A DNA stretch of 60,966 nt, counting the filler, from Sphacelaria rigidula (Eukaryota), in NCBI GenBank assembly GCA_964200075.2. It is 5 parts of 5 records of this genome, joined end to end, with 100 filler letters (N's around TTAATTAATTAA, not from the genome) between each part and the next. Parts side by side here need not be neighbours in the genome. Positions count along the whole stretch, not along the records: positions 36,642 to 48,754 come from CAXNAA020004113.1; 4 more parts are not named here. One strand, 5' to 3'. Both the position numbers and the translations under genes were made by a program. The notes under the pieces are model-generated. The model searched no databases, was not told where the DNA came from, and saw only the letters and a list, made by a program, of their open reading frames with translations. Each line of letters begins with the position of its first letter. Within the stretch, counting starts at the first letter, position 1. This document shows, one piece after another, positions 10,156-52,400 of this stretch.

Positions 10156-10710
10156 TTATGAACCCTAGGATATACGTCAATGTGCCACCTTCAATCCATC
10201 GGTTATTACCCAATCAATGGCATGTTAATTCCCTTTGCCCTTTTTGTTCGTGTCTCGTCCGTTTTTTCATACAGGAATGGGTGACGTCATGTAAATCAGC
10301 TGTGAGCAGGACGATGAAGCGCGAGAATTGGAGATTGAAAAAAAACAAGAAAAACAAAACAAGAGCAGACAGATACACCAGATATATCCCAGTGTTGAAA
10401 AGCAATCTGTTTCGATTTCTGGGTGAGTGAATGTGAAGAAATATAGACTTTTCAATTGCAGAGGCAGCGTATGCGCTGGGGTTCCCGTGTTCATCGTGTC
10501 TTCGCTGTTAGAACCATAGACCATACGCCCTCGAAAGAGCCGACCGTTTTCGTGAAGATGTTCGAATATAGGGCACACCAGTGATCAGACAGATGAATGT
10601 TCCTCCCTATTCTGAGAGTGGTCGCTCCTTCCCATTTTGAGGAAGAAGGCCGTTGTCAATGTTATTCGATATCCAAGAATGCAATGCCTTGCCGCGGAGA
10701 GGAGGGCCAC

Positions 10711-10801
10711 GGGGGGGACGTACTCATTTGTTGCTTGCCTAGGTCGTTCGACCATTGACCACGCATCCCTCTCGAGACGGAGCAGGGGGGGGGAGGGGGG
10801 G
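10711..10801 (+). repeat. Poly-G-headed repeat, short form of about 65-70 bp (family B); further copies at 11790-11868, 48893-48985 and 49474-49568
   Basis: (G)n-tactcatttgttgcttgcct(t)agtcgtt(c/t)gaccattgaccacgcatccct..cgagacggagca occurs in four places on two contigs. Confidence 0.85.
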
Positions 10802-11110: not shown

Positions 11111-11727
11111 GGGGGAGGGGGGGGTGTACTCGTGATCATGCATGCCATAGTCATACGACCATTGAGGGGGGGGGGGGGGGGGGGCGGATCTTGCATGCCG
11201 AAGGGGTGTGGCCATTTTCCNNNNNNNNNTTGGGTTTGCGATAGACATTTGTTGAGGGGTTGTGTGTTGCGCAGGGTTGCGGGACTGTGTGGGGGGGGGT
11301 CGGCGGGGGTCATGATCTTGCATGCCGTAGGCATGTGGCCATTTTCCTCGCATCCCTACACAGCCGGGACAAAGCACGCTAGGTTTACGCCGGATCAGAC
11401 TCGCAATCAATTACAAAGCGCGAGGCGCCGTGATGTGTTGAGTCGGATAAAGGGTGAGCTGCATCCTCTCAAGATTGTTCGGCTTGAAGCGCACTGAATT
11501 TGTTGCATGGGGATGGCGGCCTCCGATGAGTTTTTACATTTTCTGATACCGCCTTTCAAGAGAGAGCCACGAGTTACACACTGCGTAGTGCAATCCTCCC
11601 CATTGCGCGGAGTTGAGGTTCTCCCACCCCGCACTATATGACCTGGCTCGACCACCATCGTGGTTGCCGCAATACAAACGCAAGCGGACAAAAAAAGAGC
11701 TGAGCTGGTTGCCTAGCTTACGCAGTG
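11111..11727 (+). repeat. Poly-G-headed repeat, long form (family A); head region poorly assembled and duplicated
   Basis: (G)n-tgtactcgtgatcatgcatgccatagtcat... with the same 3' end as the 7742 copy. Confidence 0.85.
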
Positions 11728-12114
11728 CGTTGTGTGTTTTCTAGCGACGTTGCCAACCGATGCCAACCCCATGGGCGGGTAGGGAGGGTGAGGTGGGGAG
11801 CGTATTCATTTGTCTCTTGCCGTAGTCATTTGACCATTGACCACGCATCCCTTTCGGGACGGAGCGAACAGTTAGCTGTTGCCGCTTTAATTGAAACTTG
11901 GGGAGATTTAGAGGGGGGGGGGGGGGAGGGGTGAAAGTCGATACTCTGCTGGGCACGAGTAAGATGTCTTGAAGAGATGTGCATAGAGAGTGACTAACGG
12001 AGCGTACACTTTGTTGTTGCCTACTCCAATTGAAATGTGGGTGAGGTTTTGGGGGCGAGGGTGGGGGGGGGGGGGGGGGTTGCTGTTTATGGGGGGGCGT
12101 GGGGGGGGGGGGGG

Positions 12115-12214
12115 NNNNNNNNNNNNNNNNNNNNNNNNNNNNNNNNNNNNNNNNNNNNTTAATTAATTAANNNNNNNNNNNNNNNNNNNNNNNNNNNNNN
12201 NNNNNNNNNNNNNN
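12115..12214. other. Artificial contig spacer
   Basis: 44 N + TTAATTAATTAA (stops in all six frames) + 44 N. Confidence 0.98.
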
Positions 12215-14830: not shown

Positions 14831-17800
14831 TTAGAAATCTTCATCGAGAGTAAAGTATCCAAAACCTTCTCGTTCCCGTGCCTCTCTCGCTTCCGATCCG
14901 GCTGCGCCGTCAATGGCGGATCCTGGCTCAATGATCGTTACCCTGCAAGAGAATGATTTGGCGCTCTCCTTCCTCTTGGCTTCGTGTAGCTCCTCTATTT
15001 TCCGTGCGCACAACTGTTTCGGTTGTTCATTTTGCAATCATTGGTAGGGCACAAAGCGGAACAGGATCGAGTGACGGGGGCGTTGATCATGGGACACTTC
15101 CATGGCGAACATGACGGCCAAGAGGTCAACAATTCATTCGGTCGGGAAAACTTCGATTGGACTCTCGGCACATTGCAGCAAACAAGCCCGACACAGAAAA
15201 CTGCAACAGCCTACGAGCTGGGCCAGCCTAAAAACGGATTTAAGCCCCAAAAGCAATATCTCATCGACATAGACGTGCCGTGATCCGCATATCGTATTAA
15301 TCGTCCAATCACGGGGAGGGTGCCCATCTGCTCGAAAAGCTGGGCCATTTTTTCTCGTTGATTAAACCCCATGTCTAGTAATTCCTATACCTAGCGGAGA
15401 TAGCGCCAATACTAAAATCTCCATGAAACTCCCGATCTATGCACTTAGCGGATGGCGACGAATTTTGGTGTGGAGAACCATAAAAGAGTGCCGAATAATA
15501 AAAAAAGGGCCTTCATTTTTGTTTCATGGAGGTTAGGCCGTTCTCGTGAAGAAATGGTCTTTACCATGGTAGAACGCCCTAAACCAGTGAAAAAGATTGA
15601 AACAAATCAACCTGATCCACTTTTTTTTGTGTCGATTATGCCTTAGAGAGCGTCCACTTCAGGTGCCGATGTAATTTTTTTTTCATGCCCTATTCATTGT
15701 CCGTACCAAATTTCAGGGTCCAACTCCAAATACTGGCGGGAGCATGGGCCTGCAAACTTCAAATCCGCCTCTAGGGTGGCCCAGCTCGTAGAGGTATTTA
15801 GTCCAGCGCCGACGACGCGATCGAGATCAATCCAGCACCGATATCTTATCGCAGTCATGTCAAGCAATATACCATGTCATTACCAGCGCAACAGGGCCCA
15901 GAAAACCCTGGACGAACAGCAAATAAACATCGGGGGCAACAACAACAAAAAGGGACCGGGGAAGCGGGGTAGGCGCAGTGGCCCCGTTCGTGTGCTCGCT
16001 TACGTCTCGGAGTTCATCAATCCCGAAAAAATCTGCCTCCTCCATAATCTCCTCATATCTCCATGCCTCGCCGAACGACGGCAGACTGGAGCACCGCAAA
16101 AAGTTGAGCACGTGCCCAAACCGCTCCCCTGCACAAGAAAAATGAAAAAAAACAGGACCAGTGTACACCAAAACAAAACATATTTCGATGGTATTGCCCT
16201 CATCGCCCATATCATTTCGCATAGGCCAAACGTGCCAACGATTGGTGGGCATGTCTATTTGCTGTCCAACTTTCACGGCTGGTGTTCTACCCACGGCGGG
16301 AAATTCCAAAGGCAGAGTTGCTGTGAAAAGGTGCAACGATTCTTGCGCGCGGGCATTCACGTATTATCTTGTTCATAATTTTGGGGGAAGGCCGGCACAA
16401 TTTACGCGACTTTGTCGCCATATTCTTGGGGTTGATGAATGCTCCATCTTCGTAGTGGGGGACCTGCCCCCGTGGCTCATTTGGTAACCTCGAAACCTTT
16501 TGACGGTTGGGTGGTGGGTCCGAATTTCGGTGCAGTCAGACGATCTGTGATTTTCGCTGACATCACGCCCAACAGTGGAGAGCAACCTCGCCATGAGTGC
16601 ACAAAAGTCGACTCCACGGTCGACGAGGGAAAGGGACCACTGAACCCCTCTCCCGAGAGAAAGTAAGGCAAGCACCGCAGAAGGAAGGTGGAGTACTAAA
16701 AACAAGATACAGATCATAGGTGAGCCACGCCACCAACGTTCGGAATAAAATACGTGGAAGCACGGCACCAAGGGCTGGTCGGATAGGGTACGCCCAATAT
16801 TGTGGTATTTTGAAAAGTCGCGCATCAACTGCCTAAGGCAATCACAACAACTTGTGCAGGCTTCAGAGGAGGGAACTACAGACAACAGCAGTGGGCCGGA
16901 TGCTGCTGTGGCCATGGGTCGGATCTCCCCTTTTGAACATACCAACAATATCGAGTATACCATGCCTGCCCTGCCCTGCCTTTGCAGAGCAGCTACCGGT
17001 GTTGTGAAAACATCACCAGGAGCGAGCACGGGTCGTGTGCGCGGCAACAGTGATGCGGGCCCCGACCCTCGTGCCCAGGTAAAGGGATTGTCTTTTCCGT
17101 CGAAACAACGATGCCGATGCTCTAGCGGGGTGTGTGGAAGGGCAGTCTTCCGACGTATGGGGGCAAAGGGGGTCAACATCCGCCTGCGCGACGAGCTGAG
17201 CTTTGTTCTCTTACCGTCTCGGTCGATGAACGCAAACCCATCTTCGTCGGTGGCGCACTTGAAGCTCCCCTTGAACATGGATGCCAGCATAGAGTTCGCT
17301 TGGTGCATGATCGTTTCCCAAGACGTGAGGAATTTCTTCCCGCTGGTACATGACACGGACCAAGAACAATGGCGTACAGCCGCCCACATAATCAATGGAC
17401 GACATATTTCACCCACAGGCGAGAGAGAAGGAATCAGAGGTGAAAGTTACTGATATATCGTTGACTGGGCAGCAGTATCACCAGACAGCCAGCCTTTGAG
17501 GGCAGTGTCATGAAAGGATGGAAATTTTGATGGGCAACAGCCCCCGCTTTCAGCGACATCTCATTGGCCATGAGCTTTGCAGTTTTTTACTTCATCCACA
17601 TTGAACCAATCACGTCGACCGTACACGCGAACGAGCGTGAGGGGCATCCCGACATGAACCTTCCTCTTTCCGTCCGGCGTCGGGCGCTTGCTTGCCTTGC
17701 GGGAGCCGTACACCCGCATGTTTTGGTTCGAAGCGTAGACGGCGACGTCGATGGGGAACGTATCGACGAGACGGTTCGCACCGCGGGATGCCGACAAAAG

Positions 17801-24328: not shown

Positions 24329-24428
24329 NNNNNNNNNNNNNNNNNNNNNNNNNNNNNNNNNNNNNNNNNNNNTTAATTAATTAANNNNNNNNNNNNNNNN
24401 NNNNNNNNNNNNNNNNNNNNNNNNNNNN
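24329..24428. other. Artificial contig spacer
   Basis: Same 100-bp spacer. Confidence 0.98.
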
Positions 24429-27500: not shown

Positions 27501-27838
27501 CCTTGTAGTATCTGTTGAGACCTGCAAATGTGGTTGATACCGCGTCCAGTTCGAAAGGAACACCGCTCTTCCGAAAAAAGGAATTGCTTTCAACCCTGAG
27601 ATAGCGGGCGTCGCCTCGGACCTGTTGCACATGATGACAATCTAGGGACATGCGAGGGTCTCCAGGGGGCCGGGGGGGGGGGGGGTTTTTGACAGGAGAT
27701 GGGGGTTTGGTTTCGGAACAGCTGAAAACCCCACCCAGGCAACCAAGNNNNNNNNNNAACACCGCCAGGCCAAAAAGGGCTGTTGTTGCCAGCCCGGGGG
27801 GGGGGGGCGGGGCCGGGGCCGTGTGGCGGGGGGGGACA

Positions 27839-27882
<44 letters not shown>

Positions 27883-28391
27883 GGTTTTTGACAGGAGATG
27901 GGGGTTTGTTCGCGGAACAGCTGAAAAGCTCACCAAGCCAACCATGTGTAGTTGGATTTTTCCCACGGTATATTGAAAGACAGAAACGAGGCCCGAGAGG
28001 AGCGGAGTGACCATTCTGACCAATCACGGCTACTGAAATGGCCACTTCGTTCCTTACAGATGGACGACTGATGGATTCCTTCGCTGCCTGGTCATATTTC
28101 TCATTTTGGTCATGACAATTCAACCAAAGATTACAAATAACGTGCTTTTTACTCTGCCGCGTGCCTGAACCCTCATGTGTTGGCGGCATAGCTTTACACT
28201 GCCTGTAGTGTTGTTGTGGAACGCTGAGCAGAGACATCAGTAGCATGCAGTAGACGGTGCTCAGTACAGAGCGATGGCGCGCTGACTGCTTCTTGACGTT
28301 GTATCCAGCGAAGACATTCAATACACAATATGACTGCTCGCGATTGACGGTAGAGTCAAAACCGGTCAGGGTTCTGCGGGACTATCTGGAC

Positions 28392-36541: not shown

Positions 36542-36641
36542 NNNNNNNNNNNNNNNNNNNNNNNNNNNNNNNNNNNNNNNNNNNNTTAATTAATTAANNN
36601 NNNNNNNNNNNNNNNNNNNNNNNNNNNNNNNNNNNNNNNNN
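36542..36641. other. Artificial contig spacer
   Basis: Same 100-bp spacer. Confidence 0.98.
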
Positions 36642-36679
36642 AATGGAGGGGGCGCCCGATAAATAGCAGAGATGCATCG

Positions 36680-37490
36680 CGCATGTCGCTTCGGTACTTC
36701 TACCGACGTACCAGGATCGGGATACCCGACCGACGGCGATCAATCCCAGTTGCCATTACGAGCCGAAGCGTTGTCAAATACATCAACTTGTCCAGTCTCC
36801 AACCAGAGAGTTTCAGTGTCAATCATATAATCCAAGTGCAGGTCGAGTAGAGTATACCCAATTGCGGGGTATTCTTAAAGTCGTATTTGAGGTGCACAAA
36901 TTGGGGGGAAGATTGTAGGGATCGCTTTCCAGTTTGTTTGGGGTACGCCTCCCAACACTGTACCCCAATTTGAGTACCTCTAGTACGTCTTCCAAAATAC
37001 CCCGCAATTGAGTATACTCTACTCGACCTGCACTTGACATGATAACATGGCGGTTCAACACGTGCCCAGGCAAACGCTGGGTACCACTATGATTTTTAGG
37101 CGTCATCGGGGGCGATAACGCGCGAGTGCATTGGTCACAAATACTACATATTTTGCATACATATATACTCACGTATTTCACGATGAGATCGATCGTCTCC
37201 GGGTGGAACATGATGTCGAAGAATGACAGCACGAGATGCTCCACGCTCCCTTCGACCACGGCTTTATACCCCGCGCGGTCCACCTTCGGCAGGCGCTCCA
37301 GTGTTTTCTCCGACAGGGTGAACTCCGCGCACCGACCCCGCCCCGCTTCGCGCTTGGGACATGTTTCGTCTACTTTCAACCCCTCTGTGGTCCACTTCGC
37401 CGAACCCACACCATCGGAATCGCCACCAGGGTCCATGCTCCTGTCCCCGTCGTCGTCGTGACGCTCGTCGTCGGCGTCGCCCCGGTGTTG
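36680..37490 (-). mobile_element. piggyBac-like transposase N-terminal relic, truncated by the contig end
   Basis: An acidic stretch, a W, then SFFDIMFHPETIDLIVKY, resembling the piggyBac pattern FFxLFFxxExIDxIVxxTN, followed by gtgagt. Further on, WRLDKLMYLTTLRLVMATGIDRRR (about 36800-36730) weakly resembles the next helix. The DDD core is not in the window. Confidence 0.5.
36833..37036. mobile_element. Foldback MITE (204 bp) with long inverted arms
   Basis: caagtgcaggtcgagtagagtatac ... gtatactctactcgacctgcacttg is perfect over 25 bp and imperfect to about 75 bp. Confidence 0.8.
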
Positions 37491-38662
37491 GCGGATATTG
37501 CGTGTGTCACCCACACGGGGGAGAGAGAAAGGGAATATCGATGATGGACTCGCAAACACTCGAGACAGAGTGCATCGTACCTTTACTCACACCGCGCGCG
37601 ATGGGAAACGAAACTCGTGCTGTACAGTCCACACATACGCGCAAGTCATATACAATTCACAATAGAAAGCTGCATGTGGCCCAAGCCTTTTTCACGTCGC
37701 ATTGGAAGCAAGGAGAACAGGCAGTCCCGCGCTATCTGTACTTCATATGACCCTCACCTCTTTTACATCATACTGCATAAAACACGCACTCACACACACG
37801 CGCGCACACACACTCAAGGCACGGTACATGCAGACGGTGCGGACAACACAGGCCGCCGGTATTGCACTCAAGCGAACGGTGACGCTTGACGAACTTCGTT
37901 GTCTTCCTGTATAATGCTATCAAATTTCTGGCATAATTCCACCTTAGCGTAAATATCATAGCGTTTCAGGAAGTAGCATACAGCAGATCCGTGCTGGCTC
38001 AGTTTGTTTGCCCCAACCTGCACGCACCCGCCTTGCGTGTCTTGCCCCGATCACAGCACCCGACTATTACTGAAGTACATGGGAGGACGCAGTACACAGC
38101 TGCACAGCCGTCACTTGGCGATTTTTACAACCTTTCTTGGTTTCGACAGCACTTTGATCCCACCCCGAATCTGTGAAGACCGTTTCACTCGCGACGAAAC
38201 AGCCAAGACACCATGAAGCGCTTCGCGAGAAAATATATTTCTTCACCTTGTGTTACCCCCCATCTGTGGGAGGTGAATCTAAATGCTGGCATACTGCAAT
38301 GTTTTCGGCGAAACACTCTTTCATCACCGACCGCCTGTCTGAAATACGTGAATGCTGTGGAATTATTCATTCGCCGATAGTGATCACAAAATAAAAACGG
38401 CAGTCTGATCGATGCTAGCATCATAGGTAAAGTTCTGAATACCACCATCAACACCATAACCATAGAGTGGTGGGTGGGTCTGTATCCGATCAAAAATTGT
38501 AATGCCCCGAAAAGTGTGGATTTCTCAACTGCTCCGGAAAGTGCGAATGCCTCGTTTTCGGGGTTTCTGCCAGTACAAAACTACGCCAGAGATGTTCGAA
38601 GACATCAACTATGTAGCGAACACCCTACAGCCGTATCGAATACTCGTATCCTTCAATCTCAC

Positions 38663-40035
38663 CTCTACCGGTGTGTTCTTCGGAGGCTTCATCCTGGCGA
38701 CCGTCTTGTATACTTCTTGGTACGGCTTCTCGGCAATTTTTATGCATCCTTCAACACTGCCGCCCACGTTTTAGGGATCGATGCTTGCCCGCCTCGCGTC
38801 TCCAGCTCGTCCTCCTCACCCTTCAACTCACCGTCAGACCCGTAGTACGGTTCGGCCTCTCCATCATCGGCGTCTTCACTGTCTGCCTCCTTTTTCTTCG
38901 GCTTTCCCTGACGTTCAAGTCCCAACCCGCCGACACCCCAGTTCTTGTGCTTCCCACAACAAAACGTGCCGGCCTTGCGACGGGCCGTGCATCGCTTCTC
39001 TTTCCGTGCGCCTCGCTCAAACACCGCTGTGCACCCCGTGCCTTCGGTATATTTCGCTTGAAGGGCCACGTCAGGGGAGAAATGAGGCTGCGCGGGTCAC
39101 GGCGGTGCAAGGAGAGGTATGTGCAGCAATGCCTCCACGTTGAGCTCGTGCCGATACCGCCTGAGTTTCGGCAGCAACAACCCCTGTACAGCGCCACTTA
39201 TCACTTCTGCCACTCGCGTTTCCGCCGCGGCATTTAGGAACAAGACTTTGAAATGATTATGTTGCGCGAGCTGTGCTGCAGTACCAGGTGCTGTTTGACG
39301 ACCGCGGCTGACATCATCTGCGGAACAGTACCTTAGATGCACCCACTGGTTCTTTTCATCCAGAAAGTAAAGCCCATCCATGGACCCATTCGTGCAGCTG
39401 CATACTTTCACCGCATTTACCTCGTGATGTGGCTCCCACACCATAACATTGACGTCCAAAACAGCACTGGCAGCTGCGAGCCACGGCATTTTCAGCCACA
39501 GACCTTCACGTTCTGCCACCCACTTCAGATGCCTCCTAAACCATCCGATGGTGTCCCTCTCCACCTCGATATCCGGCTCGTGTTCGTACGTGTCCGTGAG
39601 AAACAGGTGCCTCGCCATGTTTCCGCCGTAGTCTGTGATGCCATGTTGGCCTTGATTTGCCTCCTCGTCAGGGGTGTTGTACAGTGCAGTACCGCATATG
39701 GCTTGCATCATGTACTCGCATACGGCTTTTTTCAGCTTCGCGACGAGCTGTGCCATGCGCCCATCATCGGGCACCGGCGTATTGCGGCCCAGTGCTGCCG
39801 TCAGCAAGGACTCATAAGCGCAGTTTCCGAACGGTCTCACAGCTTGGCGCCAAGCCGTTGGCGTTGTGGACGATTCAGCTGCCCCATGGTCTTGTTGTGC
39901 AAGCTGCTCAAAGAAGCTCCGGTCCTCATCGCTTACCGCTTTCACGATATCAGACCCACGTTTTGTATTTGGCGGTCCCGGGAACGCTGTCTGTACCACG
40001 GATCTGATATCTATATTTTCCTCAGCGGCATCCAT
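38663..40035 (-). pseudogene. Disrupted ORF: OTU-like cysteine protease domain followed by a CCCH-type zinc finger and an acidic tract
   Basis: OTU-like motifs appear in order: VRPFGNCAYESL (Cys72), WLKMPWLAAASAVLDVNVMVW, VHLRY...HNHF. ORFs 40035-39097 and 39069-38740 are in the same frame, split by a single TGA. The second contains CTAVFERGARKEKRCTARRKAGTFCCGKH. Confidence 0.68.
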
Positions 40036-40623
40036 GCTTGTGTGTGGATGGCCTGCATGACTGACAGGGGTGGGCCCAGTACTGGGGGAGCCATTTCGTA
40101 CGAGACTGTCACCGCACTATGTTTGTTGTAGGTCAGCACCCCTCCGCACATATTGGCGGTGCTGAAAAAGTCCGGTGGATTGAACGAAAAACGTTTTTCG
40201 GCACAGTCAAAAATAGAGAACCTTCTTTTTTCCGCGTTTCATTGGCGCGGGTCTGAAAAACACGCCTTGGACAAAATAGTGCTGTGTGGGAGCTGAAAAC
40301 TATCAACCATATGTCCTTCAAAACCAGCACCTCCAAATCAGCACTTTTCCATTGCCAGTCCCAAAAGGGTCAAGGAGGTCGGGGGGCATGAGGTCGTCCA
40401 TGTGAAATCCATTGGTCATGACTTTAGGTCAGGGAAAACACTGTTTTCGAGTTGAAACTCGTTAAAATGTTGAACCTCAATAACGAATCCAGGCTATTAT
40501 AGGTTGCTTGAGATAACACACCCTCAGGAGCGATTTTCAAAGCTCGATTACTTTTTCTCGACTAGATGGTTGCAACGCCGCCTACTTAAATTTAAACCCT
40601 GGCATCGCTTCTGGTGAGGAGTA

Positions 40624-41832
40624 CAGGCTGGGCCAGCCTACAAGCGGATGTGTACTTTGCAGGCGAATTCGCAATTTTTTTCTTGGAGTTGGAAAGTGAA
40701 ATTTGGTATGGACTATCAATAGGGCATGAAGAAAAGCTGTCTGTGAGGTTCCGACGATTCTTTTTTTTTCCCAAGTTAAGGGATTGTTACTAAAACCTAA
40801 AAACTGACTATTTTCTCCATTTTTCAGCTCAATTTTTAGAACTGTGATCTGAAACTTGGCATGGAAAACGACAGAGGTATGCTGAGTGAAAAAAAAAATG
40901 GGCCTTCATATTTTTTTTTTCATGAGAGGTTCGGGTGTTCTCGTAAAAAATGATCGTTACCATACTAAAACGCCCTCAATCAGCAAAAAATAAAAATTAA
41001 ACCCAACCTCACCCATTTTTCTTGGTTCATCACGACCTAGCAAGATCCCGCACAAAGTTTCAACCCACAAACACCAAACGTGGGCCGATAAACGGCCTGT
41101 AAAATACTGTTCCGAATTTCCACCGGACCGGTTTTTCAAAGGTAAGTTCGCACTTTTTTTCTTGGAGTTGGAAAGTGAAATTAGGTATGGATGATCAACA
41201 GGTCATGAAGAAAAGCTGTTTGTGAGGTCCCGACGATTTGTTTTTCGTGACTAAGGGCAAGGCCCAAGAGCAGTGTTCATTCCTCCTCAAAACCCCCCTA
41301 AAAACACGAAAAAAGATTTCAAAAAACGAAAAAAAAAACGAAAAAGCTGTATTTTTTATTTTATCGTGCACTAGCGGTTTTCCATACCAAATTTCATAGC
41401 ACAACTCTCAAAAACTGACACGCGATATCCAGATTTAGGTCATCTAGTGCCACTGCTCGTAATATACTGATTTTTGTATGAAATCTTATGTTCGCCATAT
41501 CTCGAGATAGATAACGAATTAGGTGAAGGTGAGGGTATCTATCGTCTCCACGTGCTACAGGGAACGTCCGCACCAAAAATCGTCGTCATCTGCTCAATCG
41601 ATCGTTCGGGAGTTCATATTGATTTCAGTGTGGACGCTATCTCCACTAGGTATAGGAATTATTATACATGGGGTTTACTCGACGAGAAAAAATTGGCCCA
41701 GATTTTTGAGCAGATGGGCACCTTCCCCTTGATTAGATGATTAATACGATATGCGGATCACGGCCCAACTCGTCTGTGTCGTTGAGATATCGCTTTGAGA
41801 GCTTAAATCCTTTTTTAGGCTGGCCCAGCTCG
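40624..41832. mobile_element. Longer (about 1.2 kb) member of the same TA-flanked MITE family, with an internal direct repeat of about 100 bp
   Basis: TA|caggctgggccagccta ... taggctggcccagctcg|TA. 41635-41832 is the reverse complement of 15214-15405. 40885-41000 resembles 15500-15625. Direct repeats at about 40665-40760 and 41145-41240. Confidence 0.8.
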
Positions 41833-42299
41833 TAAGTGAGCTTTGAAAATCTGCCGAGGGGATGTGGTATCTCAAGCGACCTACAATAGTGAGTGAGGGT
41901 GTCAGTATGCCAGCGTACTGCTCGGTCTTGTACACTGCGGCCATACCAAAACAGCCGTATCGTATCGAATATCGATACTCGATACGTATCGTGTCATTTT
42001 CGGAATATCGACAAAAATATCGGTATCGGCCGTTGTGGTTCGATATTCTAAGAATATCTATCGAACTTTATTCCCGGTCCGACATGCAACCCTTGTATTA
42101 AAATATCGTATTTTGCTCGCCCTCAATTGACGCTCACTCGACACGATTTCAAGAAGCTATACTGCGTGCCACGCGTGATCAGCCCACACATGAACTCAAC
42201 ACACACGTGTATCATTCACCTGGAACTGTGCCAAGACGTCCAGCCAACATCCCGGTCAATCTTATCAGTCCCCTCCTTGCCCCTCAAAACTCTCCCAAG

Positions 42300-45200
42300 G
42301 GGACAAAAACAAGAACAACAACAACGCCAAGGAGAAAACAACGGACTTGGGCGCATCCGCACAAGCACTGGCAACAGCAGCAGGGGAGACCCTTGCCGCG
42401 GCGGGGGAGACAGCTGTCGCGGCATTTGATAGTGTGCAGGAGAGGCTGTCAGAGGCTCTGCCGCAGAACGTAACGCTCATTTGGGGCGGCGGTGCTTCAA
42501 CAAATCTCAATGTGCCCTGGAAGGGTATCGGGGTGTACGCCGGAGGGCTGTTGAGCGGGTTGTTCTTGGCTGGGGCGTTGTTGACGCTGCCCTTCGCGGA
42601 CCTGGGGTCGGCTGGCTTGAAAAAGAGCTTAACTTTGTTTGAGAATGTTCTCCTGGATATTGACCAGGTGCGTACTATTACACGGGCTGGGCCGACCAAG
42701 ATTTCCCATGAGTGGTTGAGCAGTTTTCCGTGTTTGATTTCGGGAGTAGGCGCTGAAATTTCGACACGAGATTCACAGAATCAGTACGCCTTGAGGTGGC
42801 GGAAGCAGCCAAGAAAAATGAAAACAGATGCAGCAAGTTGGAGCGATTTGAAATTTCTAAACAAAAAAAAGAGAGGAGAGAATGTCGTAGCTTGATGAAA
42901 CAAGAAAAAATGTGAATGATCTTCGTCTTGCGTGTAGGAAGTCCTTGTAAAATTTCTGCTCCGAACTCCCAAAATCGGGCAGGGTACTCCCCTTTTTTGT
43001 GTGACACCGCTGCACCCCGTTGTCTAACTGGTGTGAGAGAGGGCGAAAGGTCACGAGTTCGAATCCGGACCGATATTTCTTGATATTTTTTTGCGGAATC
43101 TGGATCCCTCATTTGAGGTCATAGATTATGCATTGTTTTTTTTCATACACATGTTTTTATTAAGCGGCAGAGAGTGACGAGATGTTGGTTGTTTACAGTT
43201 TACAGCGATGTACGTACATCGGGCTGGTTCAGGAATCCGACAGAGTTGTCGTGTGCTCAAGGACTGCGAGTTTCTTGGCTGGCCCAGCTCGCACATTACA
43301 ATACACGACTTGTACAATATGGTTGAAACATTGTGATGTCCAGTGCAAAATCGAAACATGATGGGCATGTGCCACCGCGGCCCCGAAGATACCAGAACTG
43401 AAAGAAAAAAAATGGGAGTTGACAAAATGGGGGTGTATCGCCGTGGTTCTAGGATTAAAATGGGAGTAGCGTACTTTTCCGTGCGTTGCGCAGCACCGCA
43501 CGCCGACTGGGCACCTCTTAAACACGTTTGAGCGCCTCAGTCAGGTGTTTGGGCAGCATGCCCAACCTTTTTTACACATGCTAACCGCGTGAGCTAGGGC
43601 GTGGAACGGGTGAGCCTGTTAGAACACCTCATTATGTCAACGAACCCGCGGGGTAGACCCCCTGTCGGCTAAAAAGTCACACAGTACCCCCATTCTGTGC
43701 ATGGGCATACCTGCATTTTGTGTATGTGCATACTCCCTTTTTGTCTCTGGTAACCCTCCTGCGGACTGCACACATAACGCCCCCGCGCAGCCCAAAACAT
43801 ACCCCCATTTTGTCGATCTACACATTCCCGAAAAAGTCGAGAAGCCCACGAGCAACAAATTGTGACACTATGGCCTGCTGCTGGTTGCTCCGCACACCCA
43901 AAAGATCCGACTATGTGTGCGGGATGTGAACGGTTATGCTGCGGGCAGATCACAAAGATCCAAAAATGCGTGAAAAGTCTTGTCGTCACATGGCACAGGA
44001 AACTGAAAATCATATGAGTGCTCTTCCGAACGATGTTTGGCAGCAACGCGGCGCCTCTGCTGACCCTCCCTCCACCACATATTTTTTACCCCGGTCGTGA
44101 CCCCCCCATAAAAAAAGACATGCACGGGTGGCCGCTGGTACACGTTTCCTGCATTCGGCAGCGTACCTCTCAAGTTTTGGTACATTGCGGGTACGCTCAA
44201 GGACGCGCGTACGGCATGAATCGGGTTGTGATCGCACGCGGTGTGGTGTCGTGTAAACCATGGTGAACACGGTTCGGACGAATCATCGCCGGTTCGAACC
44301 ACCAAATCCATGATTTTTCAGGCCTGATTGCTTCAAAAAAGAGAAAAAAAGTTGACCGCTGGTCAGAAAGGTTTCCACGCAATTTATGCGCCATTCCACG
44401 TGCCTGGGCTGCGCGAACCTAGACTGCAACGCTGCAAACAAAGCCTGGGGATTGATTCGTACGGCATGAATCAATCACACTAAAATCAAATGATTTCCAG
44501 ACGAACCACCAATTCGTCCGACTTTTGATCGTAAACAACCGAAAATCCCCGCCTTTTTTTCCCAGTAAACTTTGCCCTTTGTCAAGAAATCCAAAACTGG
44601 AAAATTGTCAAGCCCTGAGCGTAGAAAATTCATGGTTAGGCTACCTACTTCACGAAGCGCCTTGGAAGTGCAATCCGTGTGTTCAGGGTTGTGCTCTGTG
44701 GGGTAAGGGTATATTTGGTAGGGTATGGGGGATATTAAAGGACTCACATGACTGTCGGGTATCGGTATGGAAATCTCGCACAACTCACAGAACCTGTCGG
44801 GTACGATATCGAGGTTGTACAGAAAACCTCACCCGCAACTGGGTATGCCAACAAGGGTATATCCGTACCCCTGGTGAGGGTTAACGTTTTGTACGGATCT
44901 CACAGAACTGTCGGGTACGGGTAGTAACCGGGTAAATACCCCGGAGATACGAGGAGAAAAAAATGCTCCCCACAAGACTCAACGTTGCTCGTGTTGGTGT
45001 TTCTGAAGGAAAAAAAGCTACTTCAATACTACCCGATCAATACCATCCGAAACTAGAGTCATTCGCAGGAATGCCAGTGATCTGTAAGTGAGTATTGTCA
45101 TTATCCGACCGATTTTATGGGGTTTTCGTTTGGCTCGTGACCTAATACTTTTGTCTTACTGAGTCACGTGTGTCTAATGACAACGGCTCGATTCGAAACG

Positions 45201-47404
45201 GAACAGTTATTGTGCAACAACCGATCTACATCTATATATCTATCTATCCATCTGAGTAGAGAGGTGATGAACCAAAGGTCAACGTCCAGCGAATCAGAGA
45301 ATTGATCCGATTTCCTTACAGAGGACATTGCCCAACGGACTGGGGTTCGAATGATCAATCCACGGGAAAAAATCGGCTGTAGACGGGCTGAAATCCTCAT
45401 ACTTGTACAAACACAGATTGGTTGCCTTAAAAAATGGTCTTCGTGTAGTTCTGCACAGTGACGCAGGGACAACAACACATGGCGTCACGGGAGCGCTAGT
45501 GTAGAAGTGAAGTGGTGCCCGATACAGATGTCGGAAACAATCTAAGATTCTAGTACTGCACGTATAGTACGGTAAAGTGCACGCGTGCTGCAGTAGGTAG
45601 GTGCAGTACAGCTGTACGGTTAACAAAATTTCCACCCATGTGTTCGTTTTGTCGTCTGGTGAGTATGTCGTGAGAACCCTGCCTCCCTGCTACCACCCGC
45701 TCGCCGCCTTCCCGCACAAGCGACGCTTCACAGAATCTTGGGAGTTACGATCGTTGAAAACTGTTCCGAAATGGCCGCCACGGCCTTCAATTCAATATCT
45801 TCACGTAAAGGTAGCCACGATGCGCGTGATTCATCTGGGTTCATATCTCCAATGGTATTCATTGTTGGCGTTATGTGCTGGAGCATGATCTCGTGATGGT
45901 GATGATTTTTGTGTAGGATATGGTGGAGTGCATGATATCTAGAAGGGCTGTGCTGCCGTGGCGAGGCGTTGTGATGGGACGACCTGATGTGCATGTGTAC
46001 GTAAGTGTGCGTTTGTACAGTAGTAGTGCACATCCTGGATGATGATAATAAGTTACATTGTCAAAAAATGTACTACTTACAATATGAACTTTATTATCAA
46101 TCGCAGTAGACGCTTCAGTCGATACTGCACGCAGTGCACTTTTTGACGATTTAACCTTTTTGTTGAGGGTGTGCAGTAGTGCGGTATTGCAGCTGCTCAT
46201 TACGCTGATGGATGATGTCAATACATTGTTCACTGTATGTGATGACATCGTTGACGATATTATGGCAATCTTGTACAATGATTATTGTCCATTTTCTTCA
46301 CGATGATATCACGATTCAAGGGTTGCCCACAAATCATCGCTGGTTCAGGGCACCGAATCTACGATTATCGTAAACCGGGTTTCTCGAGTCGATTGATTGA
46401 TCGATAAGTTGGTTCATCGGTCGATGAATTGACTGATTGATTGTGACACCTTAACTGATCCCCCAGGAGTCATGATCCAGTCGTGGTCATTATCCACATG
46501 ATGAATGTATTCGAAATATAAGTTTGAACAAAATGGGAACACTCGGTGAAGAAACGTGAAAAATTCAGAAAGGTAGAACAGACAAAAGAGGATAGAGTAA
46601 CGAACGAAAAGGATAGGTATGAAAAACAAAAACAAAACAAGGTCGACGAAAAGAAAAGGAGGGGGGAAAGGTGACCGCGGGTTGAGAAGGTCTATATTAA
46701 TACGCAGATTTTGCGCTATTCCACGTACCTGGGGAGCAACGCTGAAAACAAACAAGCCCAAGGATTGGGAGTCGTCTGGTACGAATCAATCACACGCTCA
46801 GCAAGAAACTTTCAGACAAATCGTTGTTTGTCCGACCATTTGGATATTTTGCCGATTTTTTTCGCTAGTGATCCGAGATATATTACTTTGGCACTTTTAT
46901 GTGAACGATCTTGTCGTTTTCTTCACATTGAAAAGTGTTCTGATATCTGCGCAGTACTCTCTATTGGGCATCTAATGCGGATGTCCTCCGTGGTCATAAA
47001 TAAGCTAACTACCCAAAATAAGGTGTGATGAAATCAAAATCATAATCAAATGTATCATCTGGATGATATTCATAGTTGTATGTACAGTATGTCATTCTAC
47101 ACCCTTGTATGGGTGTCATGTGACTACTGTGCTCGATATCTCCTGTCCTGTCCTGTCCTGCCTTCTTTTTTTTTTCAACACGATACATACATGCATAACG
47201 TTTTGCGTATGTACAGTAGTGACGACATTTATGAAATCATTTTATTTCATTTCATTTGTTTGAATATGATCAAATTGTGCATGAAGAATCAACACCACGA
47301 ACGAATTATTTCAGGGATACGTTGAGGAGGTGGACACGGAGCGCCTGCTGGAGACGGCAGTGGTGTCCATGCTCAGGACGCTGGACCCTTATACGGAGTT
47401 CCAG
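42300..47404 (+). CDS. Partial S41A C-terminal processing (tail-specific) peptidase, CtpA/Prc-like. Internal exons 42300-42667 and 47315-47404
   Basis: A hydrophobic segment (GIGVYAGGLLSGLFLAGALLTL) is followed by LTLFENVLLDIDQ|GYVEEVDTERLLETAVVSMLRTLDPYTEFQ. This matches the S41A N-terminal pattern YV-x-x-V-D...ML-x-x-LDPY. The two exons are joined by a phase-0 GT-AG intron of 4.6 kb. PDZ and catalytic exons are not in the window. Confidence 0.78.
44750..44945 (+). repeat. Degenerate repeat of the unit ctcacagaac(c)tgtcgggtacg
   Basis: The unit is seen at about 44745, 44783 and 44898. Confidence 0.55.
46428..46680 (-). mobile_element. 5'-truncated copy of the 3' end of the same LINE family
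   Basis: gattgattgtgacaccttaactgatcccccagg...gatccagtcgtggtca matches 29417-29470, and the purine-rich sequence that follows is similar. Confidence 0.65.
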
Positions 47405-47627
47405 GTGATGAAAATTCGGGGGACGGGCATTGTCAAAGCAACGGTTGTTGACATTTTTTCTTCGACAGCTGTCCACTTTTGCTGAGGCAAATGTTTTACT
47501 ATTGTTATTGGGCTGGGATGTGGACGGGTTGGGATATTTTCTTTTTGCTGTTTCAATTTTTTTAGAGTGTGGGGAAAGACAAATAGTTTAAGGTGTAAGG
47601 TGTGGAGGGTTGGTGTGGGTTTTTCCG

Positions 47628-47628
<1 letters not shown>

Positions 47629-47666
<38 letters not shown>

Positions 47667-47749
47667 CATTATTATCATTATTATCATTATTATCATTATT
47701 ATTATTATCATTATTATCATTATCATTATTATTATTTTCATCATTATTT

Positions 47750-47792
<43 letters not shown>

Positions 47793-47802
47793 TATGATTA
47801 TT
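47629..47802. repeat. (ATT/ATC)n compound microsatellite in an intron
   Basis: About 170 bp of trinucleotide repeat, read directly. Confidence 0.97.
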
Positions 47803-47898
47803 TTCAACAAGGGGAAGGCAAAATGTCTCAAAATGTGTTCACACTCGTGACATGACAGGAGGATCAGTAAGCCGCTGCGCCCCGAGAGTCTGAATTAA

Positions 47899-48134
47899 CC
47901 CTTTTGGAACTCGCGAAAAAACAGCACAAACTCCCGTATGCGAGCTTTCGTCACCGAAAAACGTCACTTCGAGTTGGGTGCACAAATCTGTCACATTTCA
48001 TATACTTGAACTTGGAGTAGTACACCGTTTTGGTGGGCTGCATCATCAATACTTGCAGAAAAATAACCATATCTTGCCCCCCAAGAAAACGTCAATTGTA
48101 AATCGTCACTTTTCCATCAACGGTTCCAGAAGAG
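47899..48134. mobile_element. piggyBac-type MITE (236 bp) with TTAA target-site duplication
   Basis: TTAA|cccttttggaac ... gttccagaagag|TTAA; TIRs match at 10 of 12 positions. Confidence 0.75.
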
Positions 48135-48148
48135 TTAAAATTGTACAA

Positions 48149-48375
48149 TATGGTAGCGTAGTGGTCTGACTGTCGCCATTAGGGTGGAGAGAACGGGGGT
48201 TCGATTCCCGATGCGTTGGTTTTTTTTTTCTTCGTAATGTATGATTTCCACCGTGAAGAGCGTGAGAACGTGAGTAAACAAAGTAGTCGACTGGGTCTGT
48301 GTCACGTGAGTAGATGCGGTGCAGGAGTGCTGACCCAATCCGCGAGACCGAAATGAAAGGCACGTACCGGGGCGA
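48149..48375 (+). repeat. tRNA-derived SINE-like element; another degenerate tRNA-like head lies at about 43011-43072
   Basis: A box TAGCGTAGTGG and B box GGTTCGATTCC, followed by a T-run and a non-tRNA body. Confidence 0.55.
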
Positions 48376-48754
48376 GGTCCTGTGCGGGAGTGTTCGGTCC
48401 TGATCCGTTCCTCGATGATACCATAAACGTTACGCGTGGATGCTACCGGGGAAGAGCTGGGTTGATCCCTTGAGACCACGGACCCATCCCGAGCACGGGG
48501 AGGGGTTTAGAACTGAGAGAGGAAAAGGAAAACACACACACACACACAATTGCCGGTTGGAGGCGGAAGTTCGCGACACTCGTAGCTATTATCCAATCCT
48601 TGATGACAAGAATATGTGGTGTAGGTACACATCGGGGGTGAGGCATGGGTCGATATCTTGACGTTTCGATTTTCATCCATCCCGAGAGACCACGGACTCG
48701 TTCCGAGAAAAGGGGGGGGGGGGGGGGGAACGACTGGGAGGAAAAAAAGAAGAA

Positions 48755-48854
48755 NNNNNNNNNNNNNNNNNNNNNNNNNNNNNNNNNNNNNNNNNNNNTT
48801 AATTAATTAANNNNNNNNNNNNNNNNNNNNNNNNNNNNNNNNNNNNNNNNNNNN
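48755..48854. other. Artificial contig spacer
   Basis: Same 100-bp spacer. Confidence 0.98.
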
Positions 48855-49006: not shown

Positions 49007-49433
49007 TTTCTGCCTTCCACCTTCGCGAGGCCGCCGTGAACATCGTGCTCTTGACCTTCTTGATGCAGCACTGTTCTTTGTCGCACCCGTCGTCGTCGAG
49101 GCACTCGATCTCAGCATGGTCATGCACCAGAGCGTAGCCCGCGGGGCACTTGAAATCAGCGCACATTTCGAAATCATTGTCGTCCTTCTCTTCGCAGCAC
49201 TGCTCCGTGTCACATTCTTCGTTGTCGCAAATGATCAAGTCGTACCCTATCACGTACACGTTGTCCTTAGGGCAGGTGTAGTCTGCGCAGACTTCCACCC
49301 CTGTGGAGGTCAAGCACGGGAAATTCGTCGGGGGGGGGGGGGGGGGGGATGTTTTTTTGGCTGGCCTTGGTGGGGGGGCCGTTGCCCCGGCCTCCTTTTT
49401 TAGGCGGGGCAAGTGGGGGGGGGGGGGGGGGGG

Positions 49434-49468
<35 letters not shown>

Positions 49469-52400
49469 GGGTGGGGGGGGGGGGGGGGGTACTTATTTGT
49501 TGCTCGCCTTAGTCGTGTGACCATTGACCACGCATCCCTTTCTAGACGGAGCAAGTAGGGGCGGGAGGTATTCGTTCGAAGATTTCATCGTCTGTGCATG
49601 GCCTCCCCATCTTCCGTTCGATTTTCCGGGGCAAAATACGGATTTCCCACTGCTTTCAGTTGAAGCACACCATTCTCCCGGGTCTGGCAGCGGCCGGAAT
49701 ACGCCCAGAGGTTTTCCGTGTGTTGACATCGAGACGGTGCACCTGCGAATTGGAAACCTCCGACGGGGATTGGAATTTATCGAGGACTCAGGGACACACG
49801 ATGGTCAGATACATGATACATCGAAAGGCGAGGTGCAACCTTAAGCGAGGAAGAGGGTGTACAACAGCGGTGATATTTGACACTTGGAGGGGGGTGCGTG
49901 GACGTAGTGGCATTTTTCGTGTATGCACTCAACACAGCTTAGACCCAAGACACTACTTTGATGGGCCATGAGTTTCAAGGTGGCCGCAACAAACCATCAA
50001 GGGGCTTCGGTTCGTAGAGGGCACCAACTCGAGGTCGGAACAGCACACAGAAACGCGGGGTATTCATACGATGATAATGAAAACACGTGGTCATTCTCCA
50101 CTCACGTCTGCGTATGCAACATTGCTCAATGTCACACTCTCCGTCGCACTCGATTTTGTCGAAGTCAAACTTGGGAATCGAGTCCATGGGGCACATGAAG
50201 TCGCCGCACATCTCCTGGTCGCCATCCTCCGAGTCGCTATCCTCCGAGTCGCTATCCTCCAGTCCATCCTCATCCTCATCCTCGCTGTCGCTGTCCTCCA
50301 AATCATCCTCATCATCACTTTCGTCGGAAGCTGGAAAGGGAAGGTTTGAGAAAACAAAAGACGAGGGAGGACTCTTTTTGCAACGTTCACCACCGCTATT
50401 AATATATTTCCTGCACAACGAAAACCATGTGAAACGCACAGACGTGTCCGGCTGCCCACTCGACCCATGGCCTACCTTCCTGCTCCGCTAACACCGTGCA
50501 TTGCCGGCGGCACAGAACGTCTCCATCACAGTGCGCAAGATTCGTCGTATCCATCACATGACAAATAGCAAATTTTGAACCCGCACAAATGTGTGCTCCA
50601 CGTCAAAGTGGACCAGTTCTTGGAACCTGTTCATCCGAAGTGTACCATCCACGAGAGAGTAATCATCTAACGGTGCGGCCGGATTCCAGATGATGCGGTC
50701 GTTGCGAGAACCCTACCCTCGAAAAGTACCGCAAGCCCATGCCCCCCGCTCGTTCATTGGCAACGGATGGTCGCCGCTTACTGATCGAGGAACAAACGAA
50801 TGGTAGGTCCCGGAACTGGAGACACCACCCATCCCTACTACCTCAGGCTTCAAAACAATCATCTTCAGCAAACCTCGCGGTCCTCCAAAATGGGGTATAT
50901 TATGACCTAGTTGTGGTATTGAAAACGAACCTTTTTTTTATCCGCTGCGTCTGCGTTTTGTCTTTCTATAGAACCCAACTATGGGGTCATCTTCAACACC
51001 GTTTAAACAACAAAATGATTATAGCCGACCAGACTTGTGTTATGGGACAGAGGAAGTATCCGACTAAACTAGCGTGCTGCGATTTTACGGATACACTCCC
51101 GAAATCAGAAGAGCTCACATTTTTGGCAGCATTGGTTGTCATCACACGTTTGGTAGTCACACTCCATCAAGTCGGCGTCGGCAACGAGTACAGAATCTCT
51201 TCGGCAGGAGTAGCTTGAGCAGAGGGCTCTGCAGCACTGCTCCACCTCGCACTCTCCGTCATAGCACTCCAGGAAATGCGCGTCCTCCACCGGCACGAGC
51301 TTGCCGGGACAGTGGATGGAGTCGCAGGTGAGTGGTCTAAAATATTCCTCCTCGGCGGAGTCTTCGGAATCCTCGGAATCCTCGTAATCAAAGTATCTTC
51401 CTGCCACCGGGTACAGCTCCGGTTCGTAGTCTTCGAACGAGTCTTCAGAATCCTCCGAGTCCTCGTACCTCGCCACCACCCGGTAGAACTCCGGTTCGTA
51501 GAACTCTTCGTCGCCCGAGTCCTCATATCTTACTGCCGTCGGATGCGGGTTCCGTTCATAGGTGACCTCCCCGTGCCTGGAGCCCTCGTGATCAGCTAAA
51601 GCTGGAGGTTGTGTTGTATGTTTCGTAACTGGGTGAAGAAACGAAGTAGAGGGGGGGCGGGAGAAGACAACAAGAGGCGAAAAAAACTCGAGTTTTTTGC
51701 TCTCCAATGTCGACAGTCAAGACGTGCGCATGTTTCTCCATTTTTTACACTGGAGAGCTTCGACGACGAAGGCCTTCTCCGAAACCTTGAACGCTTCTTG
51801 AAATACCAAAATATAATTAATGTCCAAAGAAATGCCCATTTGGCGGTTGAGAGCCAAGTTTCATCGCAACACGGGCCTTGGCGAATTGTACGTCCTCGAA
51901 ACGATTCGCCACACTTTCCAAGAGGAGTGACTTTTCTAATCCTCCGTGCGCCCTGTTTGACTTCTAGCTGGATGATCTCGCAGACAGCCCCCAAAATATA
52001 TTATTTTTTCCAAGTTTTGTTCGTGGTTTCTGAGTCGAAGATTCTTGTTGCTTGGTTCGATAACTAGTTCGGTCCGTGACAACTGGGCGCACGGCTCGAA
52101 AAGGCATATTACAGGAAGAGTGATTATTTCTCGTAGCAGAAGTGGTCACATCATCCAAATCTCCTCACTGTGGCTCTGGGTACGTTTACTATGGGGACAA
52201 GCGATCAAAATACTTCCACAGAACATTCAAACCATACGCCCCCCCCCCTCCCCTCCCCCCCCTGCCCGTTTCCCAACGCTTGCACCAACAGAATTGACCT
52301 CCACTTTTGCGTTCGGGTGTGAACCCACCTCCGTCGCAACACTTGTCTCCCGTGCATCCGTCGCTGCCGCACTCAACGATGGCGGCTGCGGCGATAGAGA

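Follow-up and report, generated by a model that had tools for sequence, protein, structure and literature searches.

We analyzed 60,966 nt of DNA from the brown alga Sphacelaria rigidula (GenBank assembly GCA_964200075.2; this whole stretch is referred to as the window), and found that its minus strand from 40369 to 36642 (3.7 kb) is very probably the 5' part of an element of the piggyBac superfamily, the rest of which was lost at the end of a contig. With equally high confidence, we interpret it as a decayed copy of an autonomous brown-algal piggyBac transposon, in which one multi-exon gene encodes a transposase with an N-terminal extension. The predicted protein would consist, in this order, of an OTU-like protease domain, a Cys-Cys-Cys-His (CCCH) motif, an acidic tract, a K-I-x-E-P-x-Y motif and, after an intron, the DDE_Tnp_1_7 transposase domain with its three catalytic Asp residues (DDD), to which full-length relatives add a Cys-rich C-terminus. 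An OTU-like domain followed by a piggyBac transposase domain is shown to recur in three predicted gene models, belonging to two named brown algae and one eukprot entry.

An earlier inspection of the same DNA made without database searches (the sequence-only reading) had proposed that an OTU-like domain, a zinc finger and a piggyBac-like exon, lying in this order, were once a single spliced gene. All the sequence motifs that it named, together with an in-frame TGA, a splice donor and a polypyrimidine tract, are present on the minus strand, and the DDD core is indeed cut off, as the contig ends at 36642. The parts of the element, in which exon 1 spans 40035-38663 overall, are the following:

40370-40373, minus: flanking TTGA in place of the expected TTAA duplication (TTGACCCTT, one mismatch to TTAACCCTT)
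40355-40369, minus: 5' terminal inverted-repeat sequence CCCTTTTGGGACTGG, with a CCCTT start
40036-40354, minus: subterminal region and 5' leader before the ATG
39100-40035, minus: first part of exon 1, predicted OTU-like papain-fold cysteine protease domain, 312 codons
39097-39099, minus: in-frame TGA, a copy-specific defect
38743-39096, minus: second part of exon 1, with the CCCH finger (39033-38947) and the acidic tract (about 38889-38800)
38737-38742, minus: frameshift site, TAA and then an A-run, with one base fewer than in contigs of public runs
38663-38740, minus: exon 1 tail KIAEKPYQEVYKTVARMKPPKNTPVE, a conserved motif up to the phase-0 donor
37482-38662, minus: intron 1, 1,181 nt, GTGAGA...CGG, acceptor lost
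37173-37481, minus: exon 2, 103 codons, linker and beginning of the piggyBac transposase domain (...HLVLSFFDIMFHPETIDLIVKY)
36642-37172, minus: start of intron 2 (GTGAGT), up to the contig end; transposase core absent

Relatives carry the OTU-like and transposase parts in one gene

An exhaustive phmmer search of 1.84 billion representative proteins returned 16 relatives at E ≤ 0.001; a word-index search with the 339-aa open reading frame (ORF) returned none. Two of the ten clusters that we looked up carry names, both of brown algae, namely, Sphacelaria rigidula and Ascophyllum nodosum. Residues 28-186 of the main ORF recur with 100% identity in the database protein P0001. P0002 (616 aa) shares 46% identity with the window across the OTU-like part, and continues with a Pro-rich linker, a CCCH motif, an acidic tract and a tail. 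In P0018 (Ascophyllum nodosum, 1161 aa), an OTU-like domain (GDGNCAY...YNHY), a CCCH finger, an acidic tract and the motif K-x-I-x-E-x-x-Y are followed by the stretch ...KQWTEEF...ETLNRLPGID...MFFFIMFPYTVFEYILEKTNEYW, a match to Pfam DDE_Tnp_1_7 at E 1.6e-27 and a Cys-rich end. The C-terminal half of the OTU-like domain is joined to DDE_Tnp_1_7 (E 7.2e-29) in P0024 (eukprot, 979 aa), and an OTU-like domain precedes DDE_Tnp_1_7 (E 9.5e-12) in P0025 (Pylaiella littoralis, 1157 aa), neither of which has a finger. The three-part order of the sequence-only reading is thus found as one spliced gene in these relatives, with all parts in P0018 and without the finger in P0024 and P0025. Although P0018 and P0024 share only 28% identity, they are colinear over about 1000 residues (E 1e-96); therefore, the fusion is old rather than a one-off event.

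By BLASTP, exon 2 of the window aligns to residues 502-594 of P0018 (E 2e-8) and to residues 343-399 of P0024 (E 0.004), tblastn of relatives also reaches this exon (E 5e-5), and the Pfam DDE_Tnp_1_7 domain starts at residues 579 and 385 of these two proteins, respectively, which is where the alignment of exon 2 arrives. The sequence-only reading had expected a profile search to recognize this exon; however, it has no Pfam match on its own, and its assignment comes from the alignments to P0018 and P0024. The same applies to the other predicted parts, as the family assignments in the window are made through relatives and not through its own Pfam scores. Only the first 20 or so residues of the DDE_Tnp_1_7 (PF13843) domain are covered, as exon 2 stops at 37173 (...SFFDIMFHPETIDLIVKY|GTGAGT). 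No further piece of a transposase was found by Pfam in 31 more ORFs between 29655 and 37490, a part of which belongs to a different contig, or by tblastn of five relatives against the whole window.

The motifs DEQM, MDNYF and GGVDLADQ, which we take to be those of the three catalytic Asp residues, are intact in P0024. This protein also aligns to the piggyBat transposase (9c0f, E 2e-5), with MDNYF placed on MDNYY. By inspection, the C-termini of P0018, P0024 and P0025 are Cys-rich. P0026 (Ectocarpus sp. CCAP 1310/34, 1168 aa) is a chimeric model that combines a MULE transposase (PF10551, E 2e-6), having its own N-terminal GNGDC-type motif, with the N-terminal part of an OTU-piggyBac protein; the shared part is 74% identical to P0024, and the Cys of its Cys box is replaced (GDGDRAY). 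Probably, two nested or adjacent transposons were merged in this annotation.

An OTU-like domain in exon 1

The ATG at 40035 lies 334 nt downstream of the element terminus, in the ORF 39097-40116, which holds PFGNCAYESL, WLKMPWLAAASAVLDVNVMVWEP, WVHLRY and HNHF. The alignment of the family shows four conserved blocks: a Cys box [DF]-G-[NK]-C-A-Y, the block TxGWxR...WLxxxWLxxxSxxLxxNIxVWEP, the strand WVHLxY, and a His box, which reads HNHF[D/N/E], or YNHY in one subgroup. In the window, the putative catalytic residues are Cys72 (codon 39822-39820) and His261 (39255-39253), with Lys263 (39249-39247) taking the place of a Glu found in the run contigs. Both the Cys and the His box of an OTU are therefore found, as FGNC and HNHF-K in the window, as HNHF-E in the run contigs (39249 T>C), and as GDGNCAY or GDGKCAY with HNHF[D/N] or YNHY in the relatives.

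Pfam names the OTU family for this ORF, as the sequence-only reading had expected, but at an E-value of 0.019, which is below the cut-off. OTU or otubain models are likewise sub-threshold in P0006 (E 0.0067) and P0018 (E 0.037), so that three family members give such hints; Peptidase_C65 appears at E 0.013-0.026, also below the cut-off, and five of the eight relatives scanned with Pfam match no family at all. An AlphaFold model based on an alignment of 18 sequences has low confidence (predicted local distance difference test, pLDDT, 49.7; predicted TM-score 0.47), and places Cys72 at the N-terminus of a helix (residues 72-82); the AlphaFold2 model made from the single sequence is unusable (pLDDT 34.6). 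A Foldseek search with the model found no match at E ≤ 0.001. Its top seven rows are OTUD1 (twice), otubain 1, OTUB2, a viral OTU, otubain 2 and 3von, six of which are named OTU or otubain, while 3von is titled merely 'ubiquitin protease'. The three best ESM Atlas clusters (score 0.91), from giant viruses and haptophytes, have PF02338 on 19%, 72% and 20% of their members. On the strength of these models, we accept a predicted OTU-like fold in which the catalytic Cys and His are positioned; the OTU call is based on this likeness of fold and is sub-threshold by Pfam. Compared with cellular and viral OTUs (yeast Otu2 7pl7, OTUD1 4bop, OTUD3 4bou, OTUB1 4ddg and the nairovirus vOTUs), the domain has only 8-21% identity, stays below the Pfam cut-off, is extended by long inserts, located upstream of the His box and in the interval from the Cys box to the central sheet, and, in the lineage of the element, has Phe instead of Asp before GNC.

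CCCH finger, acidic tract and the end of exon 1

The finger has the spacing C-x13-C-x10-C-x2-H (CTAVFERGARKEKRCTARRKAGTFCCGKH, 39033-38947), and lies in a region (39108-38695) to which residues 461-603 of P0002 align at E 1.3e-32 (tblastn). It is confined to one subgroup, consisting of the window, P0002, P0006/P0018 and P0011/P0021, and is absent from the subgroup of P0016, P0024 and P0025 in the family alignment. The sole hint of a family is zf-TRM13_CCCH in P0002 (E 0.029, below the cut-off), and the finger piece of the window has no Pfam match. It is reminiscent of the C3H motifs of plant WRC proteins.

The tail of P0002 (SKIPEPAYKEAYKKVARMKPSKNSPLK) has its counterpart in the window (KIAEKPYQEVYKTVARMKPPKNTPVE, 38740-38663) in a frame other than that of the finger, and by tblastn residues 585-616 of P0002 align to 38740-38645 in this other frame. 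The frame of the finger stops at a TAA (38742-38740), and the donor is located 78 nt further in a different frame. Since finger and tail are in different frames, there is a 1-nt frameshift at the TAA and A-run (38742-38737). The sequence-only reading had assigned finger and donor to one gene, but it overlooked this frameshift in the A-run 38741-37. The tail contains a conserved motif, K-I-x-E-P-x-Y-x-x-A-[FY], which is found in P0002, P0016, P0024, P0025 and P0026. The donor itself (GAG|GTGAGA, first intron base 38662), which had been recognized from the sequence alone, is a conserved phase-0 donor, and the ORF-style models P0002 and P0006 continue with a Val (GT..) exactly at the aligned donor point.

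Decay of this copy and hints of splicing in public runs

At most 0.42 of the analyzed 31-mers occur in any listed run. Contigs of public runs show a divergence of about 2-3% from the window, chiefly through transitions; therefore, they derive from other copies or a related strain. Relative to them, the window has four defects, i.e., the TGA, the 1-nt frameshift, a lost CAG acceptor, and a change of Glu to Lys after the H-F of the His box. Position 39098 (plus strand) is A in all four runs, giving TTA (Leu) for TGA, and P0002 also reads through this point into its Pro-rich linker. The frameshift is removed in all four runs (GCA TCA AAA ATT GCC), which have 38741 T>G and one extra base between 38704 and 38776 (record 3 of X1 has 804 nt on 803, and record 19 of X3 has 472 nt on 471). 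Position 39249 is C in all four runs, which turns Lys263 into Glu and restores the acid after the His box. Finally, in the three DNA runs (X1-X3), 37483 C>T changes CGG into CAG, a phase-0 acceptor, in agreement with the suggestion of the sequence-only reading that the acceptor following the polypyrimidine tract had decayed; in the window, this tract has no usable AG. The restored CAG defines exon 2 as 37481-37173, joined to the phase-0 donor at 38663.

Another group of contigs, covering 38918-39570 and 37197-37463, has diverged by about 10-14%, with depths of 25, 14 and 27 versus about 600, 210 and 510 for the main form (15-24-fold lower). This indicates at least one older paralogue of the OTU-piggyBac copy, and the uncalibrated depths suggest that the main form is multi-copy. 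A run contig with the depth of the coding part extends to 40274. Compared with the window, the run contigs have 21-22 extra bases somewhere within 39826-40274, an interval that comprises the 5' leader and the start of the coding sequence.

Run X6 (with X7-X9) is labelled 'RNA?' by guess only. In X6, exon bins have depths of 57-143 and exon contigs of 62-103, while the intron has contigs of depth 3.5-3.9 only and bin sums of 4.7-24, apart from 228 in the bin 37895-38073, where intron 1 contains a high-copy repeat. The exon coverage in this putative RNA run is thus about 20-fold above that of the intron, whereas the three DNA runs show no exon excess, with intron bins equal to or deeper than the exons. 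Moreover, pieces in X6 end at 37481 (37460+21, 37426+55), at about 37172 (37196-24, 37204-32) and at about 38660 (38741-81), i.e., at the predicted splice sites, while DNA contigs run through these points. A quarter of the contigs in X6 run on into unlike sequence, compared with 2% in the DNA runs. These patterns are suggestive, but not proof, of expression and splicing of the element in X6.

In intron 2, we also observed a nested MITE-like inverted repeat (36833-37036) with 74-nt arms that are 88% complementary. It belongs to a very abundant repeat family, because its summed depth in the public runs is 37,000-103,000, compared with about 600 in neighbouring bins (X1).

Termini and a cognate MITE

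The minus strand reads TTGA|CCCTTTTGGGACTGG at 40373-40355, and thus begins with the CCC that starts a piggyBac terminal repeat (CCC.../...GGG), the inversion being seen only in the miniature inverted-repeat transposable element (MITE) described below. In each DNA run, 105-123 contigs align from 40370 upward, and carry other, mutually consistent letters before this point (agreement 0.72-0.73). Since these contigs break at 40370, the element interrupts a very-high-copy repeat; the other half of this repeat was not found in the window. A candidate partner for the terminal inverted repeat (TIR) at 30789 was rejected, as it belongs to another contig, lacks TTAA and has three mismatches.

The MITE is located on the same contig:

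47895-48138, plus: 236-bp MITE (47899-48134) with TTAA on both sides; TIRs CCCTTTTGGAAC and CTCTTCTGGAAC

Its arms of 16 nt, TTAA included, are 88% complementary. The element terminus CCCTTTTGGGACTGG matches the MITE TIR at 47899 in 13 of 15 bases, and homology also links the right end of this MITE with the initial 80-100 nt or so of the element (54 of 81 columns identical), with a local score of 50 that none of 2000 shuffles reached (mean 20.4, maximum 37). The MITE is thus probably a non-autonomous derivative of the OTU-piggyBac family. Given the shared ends and the TTAA-flanked MITE, the family has piggyBac-type ends and has mobilized non-autonomous derivatives at TTAA sites.

Similar termini are known from Ectocarpus. 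The sole autonomous piggyBac family in its transposable element (TE) library, PiggyBac-1_Ec32 (9,969 bp), has a TTAA target-site duplication and TIRs of 13 bp, its termini being CCCTT..AAGGG (PMC12477816, supplementary file 1). Our element has the CCCTT start in common with this family, and its related MITE has TTAA duplications.

Weighing of alternative explanations

Several observations weigh against the interpretation of the element as a piggyBac transposon encoding an OTU-like domain. None of the gene models is intact throughout: P0018 has a His at the third Asp (GGVHC), both the Cys/His boxes and the second and third Asp motifs are decayed in P0025, and P0024 begins inside the OTU domain. 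The window lacks the 3' end and the DDD core, so that no complete element and no pair of target-site duplications can be seen, and the only end present is flanked by TTGA instead of TTAA, a difference of one base. The Pfam scores on the window's own sequence all remain below the respective cut-offs, with OTU (PF02338) scoring 15.9 bits against a cut-off of 23.3. A search of PDB sequences with the family profile found no OTU, only spurious low-complexity matches, and the residue before GNC, usually Asp in OTUs, is Phe in both the window and P0002. The junction of exon 1 and exon 2 was not found among the joints listed, and X6 is taken to be RNA by guess. Finally, the terms OTU and peptidase have no occurrence in the text or in five supplements of the Ectocarpus TE paper (PMC12477816).

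In an alternative arrangement, the OTU-finger protein would be cargo, made separately by the element or encoded by a gene next to it, and gene prediction would have created the fused models by merging two adjacent genes. Three database proteins do end with exon 1 (P0002, 616 aa; P0006, 512 aa; P0016, 574 aa), P0026 demonstrates that chimeric models exist in these annotations, and the absence of the junction from the joints listed could be counted on this side. However, P0002 and P0006 stop a few residues past the Val (GT..) at the same aligned point, as if they were reading into the intron, and three independent models from different taxa have the same order of parts. In addition, the donor and the acceptor are both in phase 0, with CAG in the runs, and pieces of X6 end at 37481 and about 38660. 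We therefore consider separate cargo improbable. Very unlikely in our view is a domesticated, immobile host gene derived from piggyBac (PGBD-like) that acquired an OTU domain, although P0018 remains an open model of 1161 aa without the third catalytic Asp and the family is conserved across brown-algal orders. Such a gene should lack termini and be intact under selection, while here we find a terminus, a stop, a frameshift, a lost acceptor and a related MITE. More specifically, this pseudogene with four defects has a piggyBac-type terminus at an interrupted repeat, the TTAA-flanked MITE has the same terminus, the runs contain two or more versions, diverged by about 2-3% and 10-14%, with contig depths roughly 15-24-fold apart, and several relatives have decayed in different ways. 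An even more remote origin, as a fragment of an endogenous giant virus (Phaeovirus-like), was considered since the nearest Atlas clusters (score 0.91) include OTU clusters of Nucleocytoviricota, and brown-algal endogenous viral elements carry an OTU-like cysteine protease and IS4-like transposases (PMC11890097). However, no relative of the OTU part or of the fused proteins was found in viral_contigs, no viral hallmark genes occur on the contig, and the spliceosomal introns, the piggyBac terminus and the cognate MITE argue for a cellular transposon, leaving this origin hardly credible.

A transposon with a fused OTU-like domain is thus our preferred interpretation, but the activity of the domain is a separate matter. 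Instead of a deubiquitinase, it might be a self-processing protease (viral OTU/PRO-like) or an inactive binder of ubiquitin or ubiquitin-like proteins, as could be suspected from the Phe in place of Asp before GNC in the window and P0002, and from an insert of about 20 residues between the WVHLxY strand and the His box. On the other hand, the less decayed members P0002, P0006/P0018 and P0016 keep the Cys and His boxes (P0012 the Cys box only, as its model ends before the His box), an acid or Asn occupies the third position in P0002, P0003, P0024 and the run contigs, and the best fold matches are bona fide deubiquitinases, although such evidence cannot separate the two activities. We regard a function other than deubiquitination as unlikely, while giving it considerable weight.

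Possible function and relation to known transposons

The DDD domain of piggyBac transposases performs cut-and-paste transposition at TTAA, and the element would move in the same way. A deubiquitinase acting in cis would deubiquitinate the transposase itself, or repair or chromatin factors in its vicinity, and would thereby shield transposition from ubiquitin-dependent turnover or silencing, while the finger and the acidic tract may add DNA or chromatin targeting, or regulation. That the OTU domain is such a cis-linked deubiquitinase protecting transposition is a possibility that we put, by analogy, somewhat below an even chance. We are more hesitant about the fuller proposal of an old, still expressed brown-algal piggyBac lineage, whose bifunctional transposase would need its N-terminal OTU deubiquitinase, together with a CCCH finger, for transposition, in order to deubiquitinate itself or chromatin and repair factors at the excision site; this is conceivable but doubtful.

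The fused relatives of the element have the DDE_Tnp_1_7 domain and Cys-rich C-terminus of known piggyBac elements (T. ni piggyBac, piggyBat), but differ from them by the OTU-like domain and, in one subgroup, the CCCH finger at the N-terminus. For PiggyBac-1_Ec32, which is the nearest curated entry, the library comment names just 'tpase & Ectocarpus-specific protein', in tail-to-tail arrangement (PMC12477816, supplementary file 1). Protease domains have been described in other transposons. Ginger1 encodes an OTU or Ulp1 domain, with a cut-and-paste transposase fused to an OTU-type protease in one ORF, and the role proposed for the protease domain is the activation of DNA-repair factors (PMC2836005). 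However, its transposase is of the Gypsy-integrase-like DDE type with a C-terminal OTU, whereas that of our element is of the piggyBac type with an N-terminal OTU; the OTU domains of the two are independent acquisitions. Helitron/Helentron proteins carry OTU and/or VTD deubiquitinase domains (PMC9741609), which are of the papain-fold deubiquitinase type as predicted in our element, but they are linked to a rolling-circle RepHel instead of a DDD transposase. It has been suggested that helitron-encoded VTD domains guard transposition proteins from proteasomal degradation; those of two zebrafish Helitrons were characterized biochemically and structurally, whereas transposon OTU domains had not been assayed for activity (PMC9741609). 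Ulp1 domains also occur in Mutator (PMC2836005, PMC9741609). Our full-text searches, which do not extend to Repbase and subscription journals, found no literature linking OTU with piggyBac, and none of 20 metagenome loci with piggyBac-like transposases (22-28% identity) has an OTU-like domain at E ≤ 1, a result of little weight due to the short contigs. Thus, OTU or protease cargo is known in other transposons, and a piggyBac transposase with a predicted N-terminal OTU-like module would be new.

If the fuller proposal is true, DNA transposons would have acquired an OTU domain independently for a third time, Helitron and Ginger1 being the other two cases, and this would point to ubiquitin-based control as a barrier that hosts generally set against transposition. 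Unrelated mobile elements have repeatedly gained protease or deubiquitinase domains, and the fusion would add a third, mechanistically well-understood class of transposase to them; as piggyBac excision and integration assays are tractable, the benefit of a deubiquitinase for a transposon would be directly testable. For annotators of brown-algal genomes, our results provide a reason against calling OTU-finger ORFs host genes, and draw attention to a domain on which the curated Ectocarpus TE library is silent.

Layout of the window and other features

The window consists of five contigs of about 12.11 kb each, joined by N44-TTAATTAATTAA-N44 linkers:

12115-12214, 24329-24428, 36542-36641 and 48755-48854: N runs/linkers

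Since these are separate contigs, features on different pieces are not genomic neighbours. The element lies at the low-coordinate end of the contig 36642-48754 (12,113 nt), which ends at 36642; its genomic context is this contig only, and nothing below 36542 counts.

Directly upstream of the element is a very-high-copy repeat block (40370-41889), which comprises a unit of about 90 bp (40370-40460) and an element of 1.4 kb, whose inverted ends measure 58 nt (40494-40551 and 41832-41889) and which has internal direct repeats (40661-40766 and 41140-41245). A part of this block is copied on other contigs (10-64 and 15211-15427). On another contig, pentatricopeptide-repeat ORFs are arranged in series at 2987-9588 on the plus strand (PPR_2, E 3.9e-73 and 2.8e-71); they tell no more than that the assembly is of eukaryotic origin. 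Several contigs also contain long poly-G or G-rich tracts (27774-27917, 49372-49513, 12033-12111 and 11163-11220), some of which adjoin a common sequence of about 90 nt (10691-10783, 11773-11865 and 49460-49552); these tracts could represent a G-tailed repeat family or have been produced artificially by the assembly.

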